In this document: piece by piece, positions 19,892 through 47,503 of the stretch
Position numbering within the stretch: position 1 is the first letter of the stretch
How the letters are laid out: each line of letters begins with the position of its first letter
DNA from: Theionarchaea archaeon
GTDB lineage: Archaea; Methanobacteriota_B; Thermococci; Methanofastidiosales; SZ-28-30
Reading direction: 5' to 3'
NCBI GenBank assembly: GCA_018992685.1
Contig: JACVGT010000011.1
Location: 64,001-128,000 of the forward strand
DNA length: 64,000 nt
Notes under the pieces: generated by a model
The model's database searches: none
The model's input: the letters and a program-made list of their open reading frames with translations, nothing else
Told to the model about the DNA's origin: nothing
Translations under genes and position numbers: made by a program

Positions 19892-20151
19892 CTATTATTA
19901 ATCGGCGTGAATGAGGTATGTCAGTCTTCAATAAAAAAGAGAAAGGAGGATGATATGGCGCAATACTATTATTAATCAATAGTATATAAAGCTTTCGGTT
20001 CATGACTCATATTTCGTCCTGATCACTTCACTTCATAAGCACATTCATTCAACCATTGCACGAAGTGGGACCTTCTCCTATGGAAAAACTCCTGAAATCC
20101 CCTCTTATTTTTTTCATCATCCATTCTCATTATTACACGACAGTTTAAATA

Positions 20152-37929: not shown

Positions 37930-40635
37930 ATGTCTGGAATGCTAGAAAGATTGGACATGAAAGAAATCATCGATATCCTGAAGAGTATGGATGTCATACC
38001 CCAGGAGTCACTGGCCACGGGAGAACACAGAAATCCCTCTTTAGACCTTGATCACGGTTTGAATGAGACACTTGGAGATCTGCACAAGAATATTTTTGGA
38101 ACGTTGGAAAATGCAAAGATTGGCATTTCTGTCATTGGGAGGGACAATCTTGTTCTGTACCAGAACGAAACGGTGAAGAGAGATTTCGGTGACGTCGTGG
38201 GGTGCATCTGTTACAGTGCTTTCGCAGATTCAAGTGAACCGTGCCCCTCATGTCCTGTATATGAGTGCATGGATGAAGGTAGAGTAAGGACTGGCTACAT
38301 GTTGACCAAGAGCCAGAAAAAAATGGAGCTGATTGCAGTTCCCTTCCCTATTGGCGGGCCTGCTGACAGAGCTATTGTCGTTATGATTGACACGGCCTAT
38401 CGATTCAAGGCTGAAGATGCAGCCCAGGAATCAGAGGAGAAATACCGCTGCCTTTTTGAAAGTTCCATAGAAGGAGTATGTGTGGCTAGGGGCTACCAGA
38501 TTGTCTCTGCCAATAGATCAGCTCTTGACATTCTGGGCTATGAGACACTGGAAGAATTGGCTAAAATATCCTTACTGGACCACGTAGCTCCAGAATGCAG
38601 ACACACAATAGAAGATAGAAGAGTAAAGAGAGCACAAGGAAAAGAGCTCTCAACTTCTCTTGATATTCGTGTTCTATGCAAGGATAGAAGAAAAAAACAT
38701 ATTGAAGTATCTACCACAACCCTCATGATCGGAAATGAAACCTATACCATGGCTTCCTTCAGGGACATTACAGAACGCACAAGAATGGAAAGAGCATTGC
38801 GAAAGAGCGAGGAAAAGTACAGGACTCTTGCAGAGAACATTAATGTGGGAGTGTACAGAAATGCAGGGTTCGATGGCAGATTCATTGAAGTGAACCCTGC
38901 CATGCTGAGAATCTTTGGCTATGAAACAAAAGAAGAGTTCATGGAACGAAATATCATAGAATTGTTCCAGTATGTGCCTGACTGCATACGATTAATCTGC
39001 CAAATGGAACAGAATGGATTTGTGAAAGATGAAGAACTGAGATTGAAAAAGAAAGATGGAACCCCCTTTTTTGCATCAATGTCTGCTGTGGCAGTAACAG
39101 ACAGCATGGGCATTTTCAAGCATTTTGATGGGATTGTTGAGGACATAACTGAACGTAAAAGGGCAGAACAGGAACTAAGAGAGTCAGAAGAGAAGTACAG
39201 GAACATCCTGGAGAGCATCGAGGATGGCTATTTTGAAGTTGATCTTGCTGGCAATTTCGTTTTTTTCAATGATTCATTGAGCCACATTCTAGGATATTCT
39301 GGGGCAGAACTGGAGGGTATGAATTACAGAGAACTCCTGGATGAGAAAACAGGAAGAGCAGTTTATGAGGGATTCAACAGAGTTCTCACAGGGAAAACCT
39401 CTGAAAGGGCACTTGATTGGGAGGTAACCAGGGGTGATGGGGAGAAGAGATCCATTGAGGCTTCCATGTCCCTCATACGTGATTCTGAAGGGGACCCTGT
39501 TGGATTTCGAGGCATAGCTCGCGATGTCACTGAACGGAAAGAAGCTGAACGAGAGTTGACCCTTCTATCCACAGCCGTGAAAATGTCAAATGAATGCATT
39601 TTGATTACCGATGCAACAGGGAAGATTGTGGATGCTAACGACGCCACTTTGAAACTGTACGGAGGGCTTCAGAAGGGGGACTTGCTGGACAAGAACGGAC
39701 TGATATTTGTCGCGCCTGAGGATCGTAGAAAAGTACAGGCCGCCTTCAATGAAATGCTGGAGGACGAATTTCAAGGAACACACGAATTCGATGTAATTCT
39801 GAGAAACGAAAACAGAATTACCCTTGAAACAAACATTACCATTCTGAAAGATGATCAAGGAGCCATAAAAGGAGTCATTATTACAGCACGAGATATTACT
39901 GAACGAAAGAAAGCCGAAAGAAACATGAAAAGGAGGCTGATGAAGTATGACCTGGAAGAAGGGAATTTGTATTCTTACCAGGAGGATGCTCCTGAAATCA
40001 CACTTGAAGCCTTCAAGGATCTGCTCAAGGTAGGTTACCATGGGCTGATCATTTCCAGAGACCCCCGTGCCAGATTTGAAAACAGAATTGAGAATGGATT
40101 CGACTACTTGTGGCTTGCAGAGAGGAATCACGAAGCTGTAATGACCCATAACCTTGAAGATATCAAGAAGAGAATTGGCTCATTAAGAACGGCCAGTACT
40201 GTTCTGATAGATAGGGTTGACTATCTCATTTTCAAGAATGGATTTGAGAAAACCTTCTCGCTTGTGTGTGATCTGAGAGAGATGGCATACCTTCACAACC
40301 ACGTCATCATATTTTCTGTTGATCCTTCAACTATGGCTGAGAAGGAATTGAAGCAATTCATGAAGGAGACCATGAAGATTGTATCCATCGAGAAGGAAGA
40401 AATCCCTGAAAATCTCTTCGAGTTCCTAAGGGCGATTCGTAGGGAAAACATTGTTGGAAAAAACCCTTCCTATACTGAGGCAGGAGAAAAGGTCGGTGTC
40501 AGCAAACCAACGGCCAGAAGGAGGATCAGAATCCTCTTGAACAGGGGGTACTTGAGGGAACTGAAAAGAGGCAGAAAGAAAGTTCTTGAACTGACAGAAA
40601 AGGCGAGAGCTACTTTGGGAATTCCAATACCATGA
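37930..40635 (+). CDS. Multi-PAS sensor with DUF835-like domain and C-terminal winged HTH
   Basis: Repeated SEEKYR...RDITERK PAS/PAC units; GYHGLIISR...YLWL...VLIDRVDYLIFKNGFE (DUF835-like); VGVSKPTARRRIRILLNRGYL HTH. Confidence 0.8.
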   Translation: MSGMLERLDMKEIIDILKSMDVIPQESLATGEHRNPSLDLDHGLNETLGDLHKNIFGTLENAKIGISVIGRDNLVLYQNETVKRDFGDVVGCICYSAFADSSEPCPSCPVYECMDEGRVRTGYMLTKSQKKMELIAVPFPIGGPADRAIVVMIDTAYRFKAEDAAQESEEKYRCLFESSIEGVCVARGYQIVSANRSALDILGYETLEELAKISLLDHVAPECRHTIEDRRVKRAQGKELSTSLDIRVLCKDRRKKHIEVSTTTLMIGNETYTMASFRDITERTRMERALRKSEEKYRTLAENINVGVYRNAGFDGRFIEVNPAMLRIFGYETKEEFMERNIIELFQYVPDCIRLICQMEQNGFVKDEELRLKKKDGTPFFASMSAVAVTDSMGIFKHFDGIVEDITERKRAEQELRESEEKYRNILESIEDGYFEVDLAGNFVFFNDSLSHILGYSGAELEGMNYRELLDEKTGRAVYEGFNRVLTGKTSERALDWEVTRGDGEKRSIEASMSLIRDSEGDPVGFRGIARDVTERKEAERELTLLSTAVKMSNECILITDATGKIVDANDATLKLYGGLQKGDLLDKNGLIFVAPEDRRKVQAAFNEMLEDEFQGTHEFDVILRNENRITLETNITILKDDQGAIKGVIITARDITERKKAERNMKRRLMKYDLEEGNLYSYQEDAPEITLEAFKDLLKVGYHGLIISRDPRARFENRIENGFDYLWLAERNHEAVMTHNLEDIKKRIGSLRTASTVLIDRVDYLIFKNGFEKTFSLVCDLREMAYLHNHVIIFSVDPSTMAEKELKQFMKETMKIVSIEKEEIPENLFEFLRAIRRENIVGKNPSYTEAGEKVGVSKPTARRRIRILLNRGYLRELKRGRKKVLELTEKARATLGIPIP

Positions 40636-40701
40636 GTGAGGGATTGGGGTAGGAGAGTTGAAGTTTCTCTCAGGCTCAGAGTCCTTTTCTGGTCAACAAT
40701 G

Positions 40702-40752
40702 GTGAAACCCTCTTTCACTCTTTTTTTCATATACCTATTTATTCAGTGAAAA
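40702..40752 (+). promoter_or_regulatory. Palindrome plus putative promoter of Roadblock-V4R copy 2
   Basis: GTGAAA-N5-TTTCAC-TC-T7-CATATA-N9-TCAGTGAAAA, matching 8676-8726. Confidence 0.55.
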
Positions 40753-40785
40753 CCCGGTCGAATGCAAAGTGCAGGAGGAAAAAAA

Positions 40786-41160
40786 ATGGCAGGGAAATCA
40801 AAAGTGGAGGAGCTGACCACCGTATTAAAGGATCTTGAAAGTACCACTCCCGACATTGAAGCGTTTGCTGTGGTTTCAGTAGATGGGTTGATGATTGCTT
40901 CTGCTCTACCACGAGACGTGGAAGAAGATAGAGTAGCTGCCATGTCAGCTGCCATGCTGTCACTGGGTGAGAGGACAGCCAAAGAACTGGCCAGAGGAGA
41001 CCTATCAGAGGTGTATGTCAAGGGAGAGACTGGATACATCGTGTTGATTGCTGCAGGTGAGAATGCAGTACTGACAGCTCTTGCCAGAAAAGACGCGAAA
41101 CTGGGATTGGTGTTTCTCGACATGAAAAGAGCAGCTGAAGCAGTGGCAGTTTTGGTTTAG
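40786..41160 (+). CDS. Roadblock/LC7 protein, copy 2
   Basis: Same motifs as copy 1; RBS AGGAGG. Confidence 0.92.
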   Translation: MAGKSKVEELTTVLKDLESTTPDIEAFAVVSVDGLMIASALPRDVEEDRVAAMSAAMLSLGERTAKELARGDLSEVYVKGETGYIVLIAAGENAVLTALARKDAKLGLVFLDMKRAAEAVAVLV

Positions 41161-41796
41161 GTGGGCTCAATGACTGAAAAGATGATTGACACCTTCCTCA
41201 TGAGAACCTACTTGGAGACCGTCGAGAACATTGTGGGACCTAATGGTCTCAAATCGGTTCTAAACTTTGCCCACCTTGAGAAGTACATTGACAATTTCCC
41301 TTCAAAAAACGGAGGATTGACAGTTCCTGTTAAGGATACCCAGGAACTGTTTCATGCTCTGAAAGAAGTATTTGGTGAAAAGGGGACCCGCAGTTTCTCA
41401 CTTCGAGTCGGTAGAGGATTTGCCCGCTTAGCAACCGAAGGGCTGTCTGACATGGCAAAAGCCCTGCAGGTGGTGGCTCGCCTCCTCCCTGAAGGTAAGA
41501 AGATGCGTGTGATGTTGGAAAAGATAATAGAACAAAATTACAAAATGTATACCGTCACCCCAGGTACTCCGACCATTACTATTGAGGAAACCGAGGATTC
41601 GTTTCTATTCATTCATAGGGATCGCTTTGAGAGCGAAGGAATGCACTCTGAAAAGCCCGTCTGCAACATCTACGTGGGTATGGTTGAGTATTTCATTGAG
41701 TGGATTACTGGACACCGTCATGAAGTCAAGGAAATCAAATGCAGGGCAATGGGACACCCTACTGATGTGTTCAGAATCTCAAAACAGAAGCAGTAG
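41161..41796 (+). CDS. V4R-domain protein, copy 2
   Basis: GPNGLKSVLNFA; PVCNIYVG...EIKCRAMG. Alternative start at ATG 41170. Confidence 0.8.
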   Translation: MGSMTEKMIDTFLMRTYLETVENIVGPNGLKSVLNFAHLEKYIDNFPSKNGGLTVPVKDTQELFHALKEVFGEKGTRSFSLRVGRGFARLATEGLSDMAKALQVVARLLPEGKKMRVMLEKIIEQNYKMYTVTPGTPTITIEETEDSFLFIHRDRFESEGMHSEKPVCNIYVGMVEYFIEWITGHRHEVKEIKCRAMGHPTDVFRISKQKQ

Positions 41797-41956
41797 TCCA
41801 TGAATGAAATCACTCTTTTTTTCTTTGAAGCAGCAATTGACGGTCCATAATGGAGCGAATCCGTTGTGCATGATCGAGGATATTGGGCAACCTACCGTCA
41901 CTAGATTGCCCAAACCTTTATAAAGTATAACAGTGTTATATTTTCAGGAGATCGTC

Positions 41957-42331
41957 ATGTACTCACAACAGGTTATAGATCATTTTAACAACCCGCGTAA
42001 CCAGGGTCGCATGGAGAATCCAGACGGAGTGGGAAAAGTGGGAAACCCTGTGTGCGGAGATGTCATGTATATCTACATTAAGGTAAAGGATGATGTCATA
42101 CAGGACATTTCTTGGGAAACGATGGGGTGTGCTGCGGCTATTGCAACTTCCTCTATGATCAGTGAACTGGCCAAGGGCAAAACACTGGATGAAGCAGAGA
42201 AGATCACTAGGGGTGACGTGGCAGATGCGTTACAGGGATTGCCTTCAGTGAAGATGCACTGTTCAAACCTGGCGGCTGATGGTCTCCGGAAAGCAATTGA
42301 GGACTACCGGAACAGGAGGGGAATGGCATGA
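41957..42331 (+). CDS. iscU: Fe-S cluster scaffold IscU/NifU
   Basis: DHFNNPRNQG, GNPVCGD, GCAAAIA, KMHCSNLA. Confidence 0.95.
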   Translation: MYSQQVIDHFNNPRNQGRMENPDGVGKVGNPVCGDVMYIYIKVKDDVIQDISWETMGCAAAIATSSMISELAKGKTLDEAEKITRGDVADALQGLPSVKMHCSNLAADGLRKAIEDYRNRRGMA

Positions 42332-43500
42332 GACAGGTTTATCTGGATCATTCTGCAACCAGTGCAGTAGATCCCCGGGTCATTGAAGTCATGATGCCTT
42401 TCTTCGACGTGAGATATGGGAATGCTTCGTCTCTGCACACAATGGGACAGGAAGCCAACAGAGCATTGGAGGATGCCCGAAAAACTGTGGCCCAGAAGCT
42501 GCACTGTACCCCTGAAGAGATAATTTTTACCTCAGGCGGGACAGAATCCAATAATGCAGCATTCAAAGGCGCAGCCTTCACTCGGTTGAGAAAAGGGAAG
42601 AAGGGGCACATTATCACCTCTACCATTGAGCATGATTGTGTGCTGAACACATGCCAGTGGCTGGAGAGTCTGGGGTTTTCTGTCACATATTTGCCGGTGG
42701 ATAACTATGGATTGGTTTCTCCTGAGTCTCTGGAAGATGCCATCACGGGAGACACCATCCTGGTCTCCATCATGCACGCGAACAACGAAATTGGAACCAT
42801 ACAGGATATCAGAGAACTGGCCCACATTGCTCATGAACGCGACGTCTTGTTCCATACTGATGCAGTCCAGAGTGTTACTAAGGTGCCTGTTGATGTACAG
42901 GAGATTGGTGTAGACCTGCTTTCAGTGTCCTCTCACAAGATTCATGGACCCAAGGGTGTGGGTTGCCTCTATGTTAAGAAGGGGACGACTGTTGATCCTC
43001 TACTGCACGGGGGAGGGCATGAAAAAGGGTTCAGATCTGGAACGGAAAATATCCCCGGTATTGTGGGATTTTCAGAGGCTCTTGCCATTGGTGAAGAGGA
43101 AAGACCCAGAGAGATGCCCAGAATTGAAAGATTACGCGATGAGCTGATAGATGGTGTTTCAATCATAGAGAATTCCTGGTTGAATGGACACCCGAAAAGG
43201 AGACTCCCAATCAATGCACACTTCTGCTTTAGATTCATTGAAGGGGAGAGTCTTGTTCTTCGATTGAGCGGGAAGGGTATTTATGCTTCTACAGGCTCAG
43301 CCTGTTCCTCAAAATCGCTGAAGCCCAGTCATGTACTTCTGGCCATTGGGCTCCCGCCTGAAGATGCGCACAGCTCTTTGCGGCTAACTCTGGGGAGAGA
43401 CAACACTGAGGGCGATATTCAGTATACACTGAAAGTATTGCCTGAAGTAGTAACTGATCTGAGAAAAATCAGTCCATTCAAGGCTTCATTTCAAGAGTAA
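42328..43500 (+). CDS. iscS: Cysteine desulfurase
   Basis: YLDHSAT, FTSGGTESNN, SSHKIHGPKG, STGSACSS. Confidence 0.95.
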   Translation: MRQVYLDHSATSAVDPRVIEVMMPFFDVRYGNASSLHTMGQEANRALEDARKTVAQKLHCTPEEIIFTSGGTESNNAAFKGAAFTRLRKGKKGHIITSTIEHDCVLNTCQWLESLGFSVTYLPVDNYGLVSPESLEDAITGDTILVSIMHANNEIGTIQDIRELAHIAHERDVLFHTDAVQSVTKVPVDVQEIGVDLLSVSSHKIHGPKGVGCLYVKKGTTVDPLLHGGGHEKGFRSGTENIPGIVGFSEALAIGEEERPREMPRIERLRDELIDGVSIIENSWLNGHPKRRLPINAHFCFRFIEGESLVLRLSGKGIYASTGSACSSKSLKPSHVLLAIGLPPEDAHSSLRLTLGRDNTEGDIQYTLKVLPEVVTDLRKISPFKASFQE

Positions 43501-43575
43501 CACGATCGTATTTTTGGTGAAAATCACAATTAACAATGAAAATATTACAATCAATTCGGAAAAAAATGATGACAA

Positions 43576-43591
43576 CCGAAAAGTTTATATA
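43576..43591 (+). promoter_or_regulatory. Consensus BRE/TATA promoter with no downstream CDS
   Basis: CCGAAAAGTTTATATA. Confidence 0.7.
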
Positions 43592-43611
43592 GGGGTATAC
43601 CTGTAGTAGAT

Positions 43612-43799
43612 CATAGCACAGCCAACACTGCAAGCAGGAGCCAACATTTCCTCCTTGATCGTTGGTTCTTTCGCCACCCCCGAATTGGCTAACAAGAAGA
43701 GCATTTGAAAACACGATCCAGCCAATCTCTGAAGGGGTGGTGAAAGACCAAGAAGTCGTGGCTCAGAACCTCCGGGCCACGACTCAACTTCCTTTTTTT
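43612..43799 (+). ncRNA. Unassigned structured ncRNA candidate (about 190 nt)
   Basis: Promoter upstream and T7 terminator at 43793-43799; long helix 43662-43680/43734-43751; inner ATTGGCT/AGCCAAT; 11-bp hairpin 43754-43784; no ATG ORF on this strand. Confidence 0.6.
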
Positions 43800-44415
43800 C
43801 TGAACGATTGAATTTTATGTGATTGATCTTTGCGAGAATAATTTTCAATACACATTGTCTTGTCTGACATGAATGGAACTCTGGAGAATTCTATGTTGCT
43901 CAAAATTCCTTTGTCAAAACTCAGACATCTCCCTAAATAGGGAAGGTGAAAGAGATTTATAAACAGAAAAAGAACGTGGGCCGTAACAGAAGGTTTAAAT
44001 GCAAAATGAGAGAAAAAGAAAACTGAATCCCATTTACCTTAACTGAATCTGTGAAATCACCATCTGAAAGTACTGGAACAACATTTCCGCTCCCTCTTCT
44101 GGAATCTTCTTACTTGGATATGGTGAAGCTCAAGAGATTGAAATAACAAGGTCATGACCTAGCGTGTCACCTTGGATACGAGAGCTGGATTGAGTGGATC
44201 GAGGTGCCGGGAAACATTATTGATGTTGATGTCCTAGAGAGAAGGGTCAAATGCCCATATAGCCACATGAAACGTGTTAAAGGACGAAAGTAGATGTAGC
44301 ATCTGGGAGATGGGTTTCTGAGACTGTGGGCCCTGCAAACAGAGATACTGGCGGCTTCATGGACATGGTTTCGGAGAGTGCAGCGGAAGATTTGCGGAAC
44401 TAGAGAAAACTGTGG

Positions 44416-46056
44416 TTAAACCATATAAGCCAGCCATTTGGCTGTTTCGGCGTCTGTAATCAGTGTTCTCACCAATCCTCCTCTAATAGCACCAAGTATT
44501 GCTTCCTTCTTTTCCTTTCCTCCTGCAATAGCGATGAGATTGACGCCAGGTCTTTCTGCAACTTCCTTCAGATCTTCAGCACTAAACGCGAAAAACTGAT
44601 CATAGTACTGTCCCAAGTACTCCCTCTGATCCTCTGATAGACTGTCTTTCATGAGGAACTGGCCGTCTTTGTTATACAGATGGAAGTTGATTTCTCCGAC
44701 AACGTCCATTTCCTTTAGCTTGTCTGGAGTTAGATTAGCCTTATCAAGAACGTAGGCAACGTTTGCACTTGTAGTAGTCGGCTGTCCAATTCCAAGGAGA
44801 AAGATGTCAGATCTCTTGGCCAATTCGAACGTCTTGCTGGCTTCCTTTCGAGCTGCATCAATGACCTTCCCACGGATTTCAGGCTCGAATACAGTAGGAT
44901 CAAGGTTAGGAAGGCGGTGAGCAAGAATGTTATCTCCAGTTATCTTTATCCTCAGCGGATCTGTCAACATATTGGCATCTATAGGTTGGGCAATATCGGA
45001 GAGGAATGCATTTAGTGGAAACACATCGATGTTATGCAATTCGCTTTTGTTCATCTGTGATATCGTATTGTACAAAGTTCTTCCGCAGCTAATCGAAATC
45101 TTGAAACAATTCTTGAGCTGCTGGTCTAAATACCTTGCTGCCTCAAATGCAAGGCTTTCAAAAGATGAGTCATTGGCAATTCTGACCACTTGAAGTCGGT
45201 AATTCGAATATTTCTTGGCAAGATCACTTTCAATTTTCTTCTTTTTTTCTTCAGTGAGAATTTCGACTCCCGAATGGGTCAAAGCAAGACTCGGTCCTCT
45301 CAGCCAACCTATCAGGACTGGATGCTGTTCATCATTGGATATTTTGGGAATTTCATTTGACAAGTAAAGCCAGAGTTCGTCTAGATCAACGGCTTCGTCG
45401 TCTCGAAGATCTGCTTTGCCCGTGAGTCCCTCAATCAAACAATGGCTTAGAATCCCATGGCCAATTCTACTGCTTTCTTTTGCCAGTTCATTGCACTCGC
45501 ATGCGGTAATAATTGCTCTTCCAACTCCAAAGGCATCCCGAAGGAATGATTCTCCAACTGGGTATCTCTCAACTTCCCTATACCCATCTTTTAGGAAAGT
45601 TCGTCCGCCAGCTGCACCACTATAACAGCAATCAAGTGTTACAATCGTCTTTTCTGATCTTATTCTGTCGAGTTGAGCTGCAAAGAACTTGAAATCTATT
45701 GCAGACGCAATGAGATTGTCAACATCTGTGTCACAGGGCGCAAGATACTTTGAAAGGCGATCATCTTGATATCCCTGAACTTCATCATGTTCATGGCAAC
45801 CGTGACCTGAAAAATGGATCAAGACTGTGTCGTTTTCTTGTACGCTACGTTGCATTTCTCTAATTTTTCTCAGTATGTTCCCCCTTGTAGCATTTTCGTC
45901 CACAAGAAGCGTAACATTTTCTGGAGAGATGCGCCAATAGCTCAAGTCATTAAGTACCTCATGGAGCATCTTGGCATCCTCTCTCGCCCAACTAAGAGAA
46001 GGAATTCTCTTATCTTTGTATTGATCTATTCCTATGATTAAAGCATATTCTCCCAT
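44416..46056 (-). CDS. Caspase-family (peptidase C14) protease fused to a SorC/LsrR-type sugar-binding domain
   Basis: YALIIGIDQY, HFSGHG (His), LDCCYSG (Cys), QHP; C-half ISCGRTL, FLLGIG, VGEI, IAIAGGKEKKEAILGAIRGGLVRTLITD. Confidence 0.85.
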   Translation of the reverse strand: MGEYALIIGIDQYKDKRIPSLSWAREDAKMLHEVLNDLSYWRISPENVTLLVDENATRGNILRKIREMQRSVQENDTVLIHFSGHGCHEHDEVQGYQDDRLSKYLAPCDTDVDNLIASAIDFKFFAAQLDRIRSEKTIVTLDCCYSGAAGGRTFLKDGYREVERYPVGESFLRDAFGVGRAIITACECNELAKESSRIGHGILSHCLIEGLTGKADLRDDEAVDLDELWLYLSNEIPKISNDEQHPVLIGWLRGPSLALTHSGVEILTEEKKKKIESDLAKKYSNYRLQVVRIANDSSFESLAFEAARYLDQQLKNCFKISISCGRTLYNTISQMNKSELHNIDVFPLNAFLSDIAQPIDANMLTDPLRIKITGDNILAHRLPNLDPTVFEPEIRGKVIDAARKEASKTFELAKRSDIFLLGIGQPTTTSANVAYVLDKANLTPDKLKEMDVVGEINFHLYNKDGQFLMKDSLSEDQREYLGQYYDQFFAFSAEDLKEVAERPGVNLIAIAGGKEKKEAILGAIRGGLVRTLITDAETAKWLAYMV

Positions 46057-46570
46057 TTCAATGCCTCCTTTGGGACCAATCTGTTCATATTTGCGTTGCT
46101 TTGTGCACTACTCTGAATTCTGGAAACAGATTTTCCCTCATACCCAACAACCTTTTCATCACTTCTCGAGTATCGAGAATTGATTTGGCGCATTCTTTGT
46201 TTTGCTCAAGATTCTACTTCTTCGTGTTTTTAGGCGTCTTTTTTGCCCTGTTCTTATTTGAATGTATTGTCTTATAAGGCTTTCTATGCACTTCCTGCAG
46301 ATTTTTTGAGTGTCTTTTTATCTATTCAATGATCTTAGATCTTACATCGATATGAAAGAATAATCCTCAGGTACCAGAAACAGCTTTAGGATATACAAAG
46401 CAGACTGAACGAATAGAAGACAAATAGAAATGACAAAAGGAAGAATTTTGATCCAGATGGTGCCAAAGAAGAAGAAAACAAACAAGTTCCTTCAGCACGA
46501 GATCTCTTGAAATTTTCGCCCCTGTCTGTTCGTCTGAACTTGCTGGGTTACCTCCCTATCTTTTCAGCTT

Positions 46571-47419
46571 TTACTTCTTGATAACCAGATATATCCCCAC
46601 AATTACCAAAGTGCCCCCGACACCAATGAGTAGTGTGGGAACTTCTTTCAAAAACATCACTGCCAACAGGGTAGCTCCCACAGGCTCTCCCAATATTGCC
46701 ACACTTACTACACCTGCCTTCAAATACTTCAGACAGTAATTGTACAGCGTATGCCCCAACCCCGAAGAGACCACTCCCAGCGCTGCAAATACGACATACT
46801 GCCACACGGAATATCCCGTCAGGGCATGTCCAAATCCCAGTGAAGTGACCAGTAGGAATCCAAAAGAAATGCAGTACACCCCGGACACGTAACTGAATGT
46901 GTCCAGATTCCTTCTCAAATCTCTTCCGATCACCAAATACCCCGCAAGCCCTACAGCGCCCACCAGAGCCAGTAGAATCCCCATCATGTTCTGTGAGACA
47001 GGGTTATTCAGTCCAATCAACACCGCACCTATCATGGAGATGATAATTCCAGCTACTGCTCTTCCGCTCAACGTTTCCTTCAAGAACACATACGATAACC
47101 CAGCCACAAATAAGGGAGAAGAATCCACAATGATGACGCTGGTGGCTACTGTCGTATAGAATAGTGAGGTGATCCAGGTGGCAAAGTGTACGTACAGAAA
47201 GAACCCTGACAGTATCAATGCAACCATATCCCTCTTGCCCAGCCCGAAAAGCTGATGGATCTGACCCCGGCCTACTGCGAGCACAACCATGCACATACTG
47301 GCAATTCCCAGTCTGTACGTAGCAATTACCAGAGGAGGCGCCTCACTCATTCTGATGAGAATAGATGCTGAGGACACAGCACAAATAGCCGTAAGTAGGG
47401 CCAGACGTGGGGACAGCAT
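46571..47419 (-). CDS. DMT/EamA-family transporter
   Basis: SSASILIR, HFATWITSL.YTTVA, GHTLYNY, LGEPVGA. Confidence 0.9.
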   Translation of the reverse strand: MLSPRLALLTAICAVSSASILIRMSEAPPLVIATYRLGIASMCMVVLAVGRGQIHQLFGLGKRDMVALILSGFFLYVHFATWITSLFYTTVATSVIIVDSSPLFVAGLSYVFLKETLSGRAVAGIIISMIGAVLIGLNNPVSQNMMGILLALVGAVGLAGYLVIGRDLRRNLDTFSYVSGVYCISFGFLLVTSLGFGHALTGYSVWQYVVFAALGVVSSGLGHTLYNYCLKYLKAGVVSVAILGEPVGATLLAVMFLKEVPTLLIGVGGTLVIVGIYLVIKK

Positions 47420-47503
47420 TACATACCATCTTAGAATGTCCATAAAAAGGTGTCGCACTCCCCTTTCAGTACGCAACCATCTCCTCAAAAAAGGAAGAAG
47501 AAA

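Follow-up and report, generated by a model that had tools for sequence, protein, structure and literature searches.

What is encoded by the intergenic region between nifU-nifS and a convergent caspase-fusion gene in an uncultured Theionarchaea archaeon? The region lies in a 64,000-nt stretch of contig JACVGT010000011.1 (assembly GCA_018992685.1, positions 64,001 to 128,000 of the forward strand; hereafter, the window), where an initial annotation had proposed that positions 43576-43799 specify a structured non-coding RNA (ncRNA) with a consensus promoter, a kink-turn (K-turn)-like motif, and a terminator. That a genuine ncRNA gene of a new family is present is very probable. The more specific reading favored here, to which a probability of roughly 0.6 is assigned, is that of a stand-alone gene for a structured small RNA (sRNA) of ~185 nt, the long form (form A) within an archaeal sRNA family that is new and restricted to one lineage. 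The observations on which it is built are conservation, covariation, paralogy, synteny, and the lack of a conserved open reading frame (ORF).

The predicted form-A RNA (43615-43799, + strand) is preceded by a promoter composed of a transcription factor B recognition element (BRE) and a TATA box (CCGAAAAGTTTATATA, 43576-43591; full span AACCGAAAAGTTTATATA, 43574-43591), which matches the consensus pattern and is kept in all homologs. The start was placed according to the distance from the TATA box, which lies at −31 to −24, and to the onset of conservation, which in all copies is AGCACAGC; the end is given by a run of seven T (43793-43799). When up to one mismatch was allowed, the promoter pattern matched twice in the window (0.01 expected), and its exact version matched 30 times in the 3.03-Mb genome, versus none for the reversed control. 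An ORF of at least 60 amino acids (by a crude call) lies within 200 nt of 22 of these 30 promoters; eight, including that of form A, have none, and a tRNA follows none of the 30. The form-A BRE is similar to that of the rRNA promoters of a congener. At the other end, a hairpin is followed by CAACUUCC and the T-run (together 43755-43799), which presumably act as terminator and stabilizer; a scan for bacterial-type terminators did not flag this hairpin because the T-run begins 9 nt past its stem. Thus, a conserved non-coding segment is flanked by its own BRE/TATA and an oligo-T, as is expected of a stand-alone sRNA gene, and the individual elements named in the initial annotation (promoter, two 5′ hairpins, long helix, inner helix, 3′ hairpin, and T7) were each found in the sequence. 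From this arrangement, we infer that transcription would begin ~24 nt past the BRE/TATA and stop at the conserved hairpin and U-run.

Across four species, the whole RNA is 78-90% identical, compared with 40-62% for the 60 nt past the T-run; its first 47 nt, the 5′ domain, are even 94-100% identical. For comparison, the NifS proteins share 72-90% of their amino acids. The predicted fold of the + strand (−68.6 kcal/mol, z = −4.35) was not equaled by any of 200 shuffled sequences; that of the − strand reached z = −3.30. A consensus structure calculated with RNAalifold from five form-A sequences, all at least 78% identical, contains 49 pairs in six helices. Hairpin H1 (43619-43630; 3 bp, loop CCAACA) is weak, one pair being broken in one of the five sequences. 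In hairpin H2 (43631-43657; CAAG-C-AGGAG paired with UUCCU-C-CUUG), which belongs to the nearly invariant 5′ domain, all nine pairs are invariant. The loops of these two 5′ hairpins contain one copy each of AGCCAACA (43620-43627 and 43639-43646). They are followed, at 43662-43751, by the long helix H3 (TTGGTTCTTTCGCCACCCC at 43662-43680 and GGGGTGGTGAAAGACCAA at 43734-43751, with U43667 bulged), which encloses an internal loop (CGA opposite CTCTGAA), the inner helix H4 (ATTGGCT at 43684-43690 and AGCCAAT at 43720-43726; in the consensus, 43684-43689 and 43721-43726), and an apical loop of ~30 nt (43690-43720) with a conserved AUUUGAA. The 3′ hairpin can be drawn with 11 bp (AGTCGTGGCTC at 43754-43764 and GGGCCACGACT at 43774-43784), and in the consensus has 13 pairs (43755-43767 and 43771-43783), two of them with compensatory changes.

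Standard pairs occupy 96.1% of the alignment cells assigned to helices, versus 35-50% when the partners were slid by one to three columns, and six pairs are changed on both sides, versus zero to three in the slid versions. None of 500 shuffles reached the covariation score, and 16 of 500 reached the count of both-side changes, in a shuffle control that is known to flatter related sequences. Pair 43673:43741 in H3 is G.U, G-C, or A-U depending on the species, the second pair of H4 is U-A or C-G, and in the 3′ hairpin C-G alternates with U-A and A-U with G-C. In addition, contigs from one to four public sequencing runs carry single-base changes at 43668, 43741, 43762, and 43763, in H3 or the 3′ hairpin, and pairing is retained in all of them. 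The search for homologs and covariation that the initial annotation had called for thus returned both, including the six covarying pairs.

No known RNA family accounts for the region. With Rfam 15 at the gathering score, only two tRNAs were detected in the 64-kb window; at E ≤ 10, the region itself yielded two chance-level matches (15.4 and 14.5 bits, where the cut-offs are 90 and 112), and at E ≤ 1, the B loci described below and one form-A homolog yielded none. The archaeal signal recognition particle (SRP) RNA (C5:176995-177308, 170.9 bits) and the RNase P RNA (C6:13482-13785, 143.1 bits) were both detected above their cut-offs elsewhere in the genome, in agreement with the earlier impression that the element is neither of the two. 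The proposal of a structured ncRNA lacking an Rfam family therefore stands with respect to conservation, covariation, and family assignment, its transcription being a prediction.

A DNA search of 61 related genomes returned full-length homologs only in the two congeneric genomes (identities of 94% and 78%), and a second, partial copy on contig 18 of this genome, in which nhmmer found exactly two copies. Every genome with form A (n = 3) also contains, at a different locus, a shorter paralog of ~130 nt, form B. A covariance model made from five long-form sequences and run over 34 genomes of the order gave strong matches in these three genomes, each with one A (E = 3e-66, 7e-47, and 1e-62) and one B (E = 1e-8, 1e-7, and 1.5e-4). 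Form B retains the promoter, an altered version of the first hairpin, the 3′ hairpin, AUCCAGCCG, the purine-rich GGGUGGUGAAAGAC, and the AAGAAGG...AUUUGAA stretch, which makes up the apical loop in A; it has neither H2 nor the 5′ strand of either helix. Common to A and B is a purine-rich, Shine-Dalgarno (SD)-like motif (GGGGUGGUGAAAGA, 43734-43747 in A), which resembles ribosome-binding sites of this genome, such as GGTGGTGAAAGATG before an ORF on contig 12. The pyrimidine strand with which this motif (GGUGGUGAAAGA) pairs in A is missing from B, and, in the predicted folds, the motif is thus masked in A and open in B: the probability that it is unpaired was 0.00-0.03 for four A RNAs and 0.42-0.54 for three B RNAs. 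The B form of the third genome, which is the most divergent, contains three purine motifs, one of them a perfect AGGAGGUGA. A second copy of the purine motif is also found 206 nt downstream in the window, in an ORF-free stretch (AGGGAAGGTGAAAGA, 43939-43953; 13 of 15 positions identical to 43733-43747), and may be due to chance.

The two forms also share what lies before their promoters. The 60 nt 5′ of the BRE (43514-43573 at the form-A locus) can be aligned without any gap over nine A and B loci. In form A, they contain GTGAAAATCAC, the palindrome-like TTACAATCAATTCGGAA (43545-43561), and ATGATGA (43566-43572); over all loci, these elements take the form GYGA...TCRC, a palindrome of the type TTACAAT-N3-ATTGTAA, and ATGATG adjoining the BRE. 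A hidden Markov model (HMM) of the region, run over the whole genome, recognized the loci of A and B (E = 6e-10 and 1e-10) and no others, the next match having an E of 0.86; a strict palindrome search for a wider regulon likewise led to no locus besides A and B. Such a private, common control region speaks for co-regulation and for a DNA-binding regulator of their own; on the strength of the alignment, A and B are probably controlled by one such factor.

Other consensus promoters of the genome carry conserved sequence of different kinds. Eight of them (window 19983-19998, − strand; L089, L097, L102, L110, L113, L114, and L115) directly precede AT-rich palindromes that resemble one another (general form TATTGATTA-N-CAATAATGA), which suggests a gene set under one repressor. 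Nearly identical leaders follow strong consensus promoters in three groups (GGATGGGTCTGT... at L106 and L112; ...GGTCTCGAAGGGA at L099, L109, and L117; AAGTACCGGCTAAATG... at G000:C7:36639 and C18:7694). Several of them have no nearby ORF, and they could represent additional paralogous ncRNAs or else 5′ leaders that are conserved. Promoters before GGUGAAAGAC-like motifs at C8:23 and C27:57414, considered as possible family members, were rejected as belonging to 5′ leaders of protein genes: the loci (G000:C8:23-130 and C27:57320-57429) are paralogous genes (MRKDIVVIEIRTVQDTD..., with SGLVRDA repeats) that have consensus promoters and long leaders containing such motifs.

How might such a pair of RNAs act? 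Form A would comprise the nearly invariant two-hairpin 5′ domain, the long interrupted helix with its ~30-nt loop, and the 3′ hairpin, and A and B would be co-regulated riboregulators acting in trans. Their effector would be the common 3′ half (loop AUUUGAA, AUCCAGCC, and purine motif), which could contact a pyrimidine-rich partner RNA, the anti-SD end of the 30S subunit (as a decoy), or a protein; the A-specific 5′ half would serve as an intramolecular mask or as a signal sensor. From the predicted folds we infer this masking logic, and the masked/open mechanism is offered as a tentative model only, possible rather than probable. The invariance of the 5′ domain of A suggests that it makes a sequence-specific contact of its own. 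As judged from gene position, the place of A after nifU-nifS and of B near a flavoprotein gene suggests a tie to Fe-S or redox metabolism. An analogy may be drawn with bacteria, in which RyhB-type sRNAs are iron-responsive, linked to Fe-S genes, and act on isc, the Fe-S assembly system. In a bolder and rather unlikely version, A and B would form a two-part device, B showing the SD mimic constitutively and A holding the same mimic locked by an anti-SD-like strand. One common operator would drive both, and the device would titrate the 30S anti-SD or pair with pyrimidine-rich targets, tuning translation to a signal tied to Fe-S cluster supply. If true, this would be an archaeal functional analog of the RyhB-type iron/Fe-S sRNAs, built on an SD decoy.

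Several points weigh against the favored reading. Transcription of form A is deduced from its sequence, and support for the helices comes from only five form-A sequences that are at least 78% identical; no covariation is seen in H1 or H2, and shuffling as a control flatters sequences so closely related. The putative effector motif is, in the modeled folds of A, paired almost throughout, so A may work quite differently from B. The motif is the best pairing site for the 16S rRNA 3′ tail of the congener in all seven RNAs analyzed (−11.0 to −15.5 kcal/mol), but 2 to 53 of 300 mononucleotide shuffles were as good, and the match is therefore graded a mere hint. AUCCAGCCG is a 9-nt complement of the usual archaeal 16S 3′ region; the actual 16S rRNA of the congener (ending ...GCGGCUAGAUCACCUCCA) reads GGCUAGAUCA, however, which gives a central mismatch. 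In the assembly of this genome, which does contain SRP and RNase P RNA, no match to the archaeal small-subunit rRNA model was obtained. Accessible conserved segments, as expected of a trans-acting riboregulator, are present, but searches of this one genome for complementarity and for duplexes at start regions yielded no convincing target: comparison of A and B with the genome by blastn-short gave only matches of 12-18 nt (E from 0.07 upward), a duplex scan of 5,369 crudely called ORF starts gave no clear outlier, the start calls being rough, and the complements of the H2 3′ strand were ordinary sequences resembling ribosome-binding sites. Finally, a family of one genus could be young and of minor importance.

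The alternative that survives best places the element in cis, as an appendix of nifU-nifS: a 3′-untranslated region (3′-UTR) element, an sRNA derived from the 3′-UTR, or a bidirectional terminator or insulator before the gene for an EamA transporter. At the locus in the window, genes for a 901-amino-acid protein with multiple PAS domains, DUF835, and a helix-turn-helix, for a Roadblock/LC7 protein, and for a V4R protein (37930-41796, + strand), which could be a sensor/regulator module for the locus, are followed by those for NifU (41933-42331, + strand) and the class-V aminotransferase NifS/IscS (42328-43500, + strand), and then by the RNA. NifU and NifS are encoded upstream of form A, which follows directly after nifS, in all six loci with enough flanking sequence. 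EamA (46571-47488, − strand, in the window) lies beyond the far side of the RNA in six loci and converges on the 3′ hairpin; in the second congener, its stop codon is ~40 nt from the RNA end. This synteny speaks for a cis element. The element has, however, its own conserved BRE/TATA and 60-nt upstream region, and the same promoter precedes paralog B, whose locus lacks nifS (in two genomes, an MFS transporter gene and an FMN reductase-like gene flank it on either side). Furthermore, nifS orthologs occur in 28 of the 34 genomes of the order, and when the 520 nt past nifS were inspected in 12 genomes, the RNA was present only in the congener and nothing comparable in the 11 genomes of other genera; at 14 nifS loci, the covariance model with filters off gave a best E of 0.31. 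A cis appendix is thus regarded as improbable.

Rather more improbable is that the element is a non-functional relic, that is, a duplicated or decayed segment with incidental hairpins, for example, of an Lrp/AsnC-TRASH-type gene. This notion derives from the motif TCCAGCC-N11-AGGGTGGTGAAGGA, which is found not only in the sRNA but also, in frame, in two archaeal coding regions of the Lrp-TRASH-like kind (L030:6680-6711 and L044:6222-6253). The products of both read SSxVVTRVVK(D/E) followed by a CDYC...C motif, which looks like an Lrp/AsnC fold with a TRASH-type metal-binding end. Beyond the common motif, no extended similarity of the sRNA to them, or to any gene of the genome, was found, and an origin from such a gene was rejected; the shared motif is ascribed to coincidence or, at the utmost, to a distant derivation. 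Decay is also at odds with the compensatory changes, with the retention of two syntenic paralogs in all three genomes, and with the purifying selection seen for both RNA and promoter.

An RNA bound by L7Ae through a K-turn, as part of a ribonucleoprotein of the box C/D, H/ACA, or RNase P-like kind, is very unlikely, although a K-turn-like motif was a prominent part of the initial annotation. In a K-turn, a canonical and a non-canonical stem are separated by a 3-nt bulge that adjoins tandem sheared G.A/A.G pairs. Such tandem pairs beside a bulge can be drawn in two of the five form-A sequences, those of this genome and of the nearest congener; in the remaining three, the 5′ side of the loop reads AAA or AAAA, and, in contigs of two public runs, both strands are altered (G43682 is replaced, and UGAA at 43730-43733 has become CUUU). 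The conserved part of the internal loop is instead YCUC on the 3′ strand, and the bulge has 4 nt rather than 3. Box C/D sRNAs are guides of 50-70 nt whose box C (RUGAUGA) is close to the 5′ terminus and whose box D (CUGA) is close to the 3′ terminus. Here, the ATGATGA at 43566-43572 lies 5′ of the TATA box and outside the predicted RNA, CUGA (43729-43732) is internal, terminal C/D pairing is absent, and the RNA is ~185 nt long. In an archaeal H/ACA sRNA, a hairpin contains a pocket for pseudouridylation and carries a K-turn or K-loop in its upper stem, and an ACA box directly follows the stem on the 3′ side. By eye, the loop here is small and asymmetric (3 versus 7 nt) and forms no such pocket, the stem is followed by AAGAAG, and the K-turn is unconserved. 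Because the GA/AG pairs occur in only two of five sequences and the box C-like ATGATGA is upstream of the TATA box, a K-turn and L7Ae binding are unsupported as family features, and this part of the earlier proposal is disfavored.

A messenger RNA for a small protein, or an RNA of dual function, is equally hard to reconcile with the data. ORFs are present in this genome, with 49 amino acids in sense (43662-43811) and 87 in antisense orientation (43585-43848), and so are SD-like motifs, but the homologs are separated by indels of 1, 2, and 4 nt that shift the frames, and the longest open frames differ between species in frame and sequence, no reading frame being conserved across species on either strand. 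The antisense frame, conservation of which as a protein had been named as a possible objection to an ncRNA, would in addition pass through the TATA box, and a Pfam search with three local ORFs gave nothing.

Least likely of all is a functional tie, for example, as antisense or 3′ regulator, to the gene for a Peptidase_C14 fusion with a SorC sugar-binding domain (caspase-SorC; 44416-46056, − strand), for although the two are indeed convergent neighbors in this genome, as initially noted, the gene is separated from the RNA by 600 nt, the protein is encoded at only one of 10 loci tested, that of this genome, and in six loci the gene after the RNA is EamA. The presence of caspase-SorC at this locus only, and of EamA near the RNA elsewhere, points to an insertion of ~2.7 kb in this genome and not to a partner of the RNA, so that the co-occurrence once considered does not hold. 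The segment in question extends from 43800 to 46570 between the RNA and EamA, its first 600 nt (43800-44415) containing no ORF of at least 40 amino acids; flanking repeats suggesting a mobile element were not found around it.

The stand-alone sRNA gene is, judging by the collections searched, most likely a possession of a small group of uncultured sediment archaea, comprising one genus and a few metagenome contigs. Beyond the three genomes with strong matches, the covariance model gave only matches with E ≥ 0.019 in the 34 genomes of the order, without family features on inspection; those in another genus (E = 0.02-0.5, model positions 62-124) are A-rich stretches and were rejected. A 24-nt match of the T-rich tail in G010 (E = 2.6e-4) was judged spurious. 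In a pattern scan of genome contigs, two of 49 matches are members, titled "Theionarchaea archaeon" and "uncultured Thermococci archaeon"; 45 others are bacterial records. A pattern scan of metagenomes gave 30 matches, five of which are family members (L060, L068, L074, L085, and L086) and 25 unrelated, mostly GC-rich sequence; the family pattern matched none of the viral contigs, and a BLAST search with the region found nothing in plasmid and phage collections. Close variants are, moreover, present on contigs of four further public runs (sediment, sludge, and marsh metagenomes, and one with a coded organism label), one of which also contains a form-B-type 5′ end.

Hardly anything is known of regulatory RNAs in uncultured archaea, and the structures of very few archaeal sRNAs are backed by comparative data. 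The present case offers promoter, body, and 3′ end, covariation in helices, and a private control region all in one, and the natural pair of a masked and an open paralog points to the effector part of the RNA. Its fixed place behind nifU-nifS amounts to a concrete hypothesis on a tie to Fe-S metabolism, and the family is a candidate of the Rfam type for annotating Theionarchaea-like genomes. At the level of titles and abstracts, supplementary tables excepted, the literature on Theionarchaea, Thermococcales, and archaeal sRNAs does not describe this RNA.

Among known systems, RNAs bound by L7Ae share with the copy of this genome the succession of helix, asymmetric loop, and helix, and possibly tandem G.A pairs; unlike in those RNAs, the G.A pairs are unconserved here, and C/D or ACA boxes are not in the right places. 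With RyhB-type sRNAs, there is no homology and the analogy is one of gene position only, that is, a small RNA gene beside Fe-S assembly genes, in the present case with AT-rich palindromic operators upstream of the promoter. Untranslated sRNAs associated with ribosomes have been reported from Haloferax volcanii (PMC12482152). The RNA studied here is likewise non-coding, and its predicted SD-like motif, the best anti-SD site, may contact ribosomes; it differs in having no homology to them and in an anti-SD match that is statistically weak and seen at the sequence level. The closest counterpart may be sRNA162 of Methanosarcina mazei, an intergenic sRNA whose single-stranded linker masks a ribosome-binding site (PMC3510493). 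The two are unrelated by sequence or Rfam family and come from different archaeal classes, form A is known as a sequence, and a masked/open pair of paralogs sets the present RNAs apart. On the other hand, both are intergenic, have their own promoter, combine a structured body with single-stranded segments, lack a conserved ORF, and contain elements related to ribosome-binding sites. The RNA of the window would thus represent a new family of a known kind, the intergenic archaeal sRNAs, in one genus of uncultured archaea.

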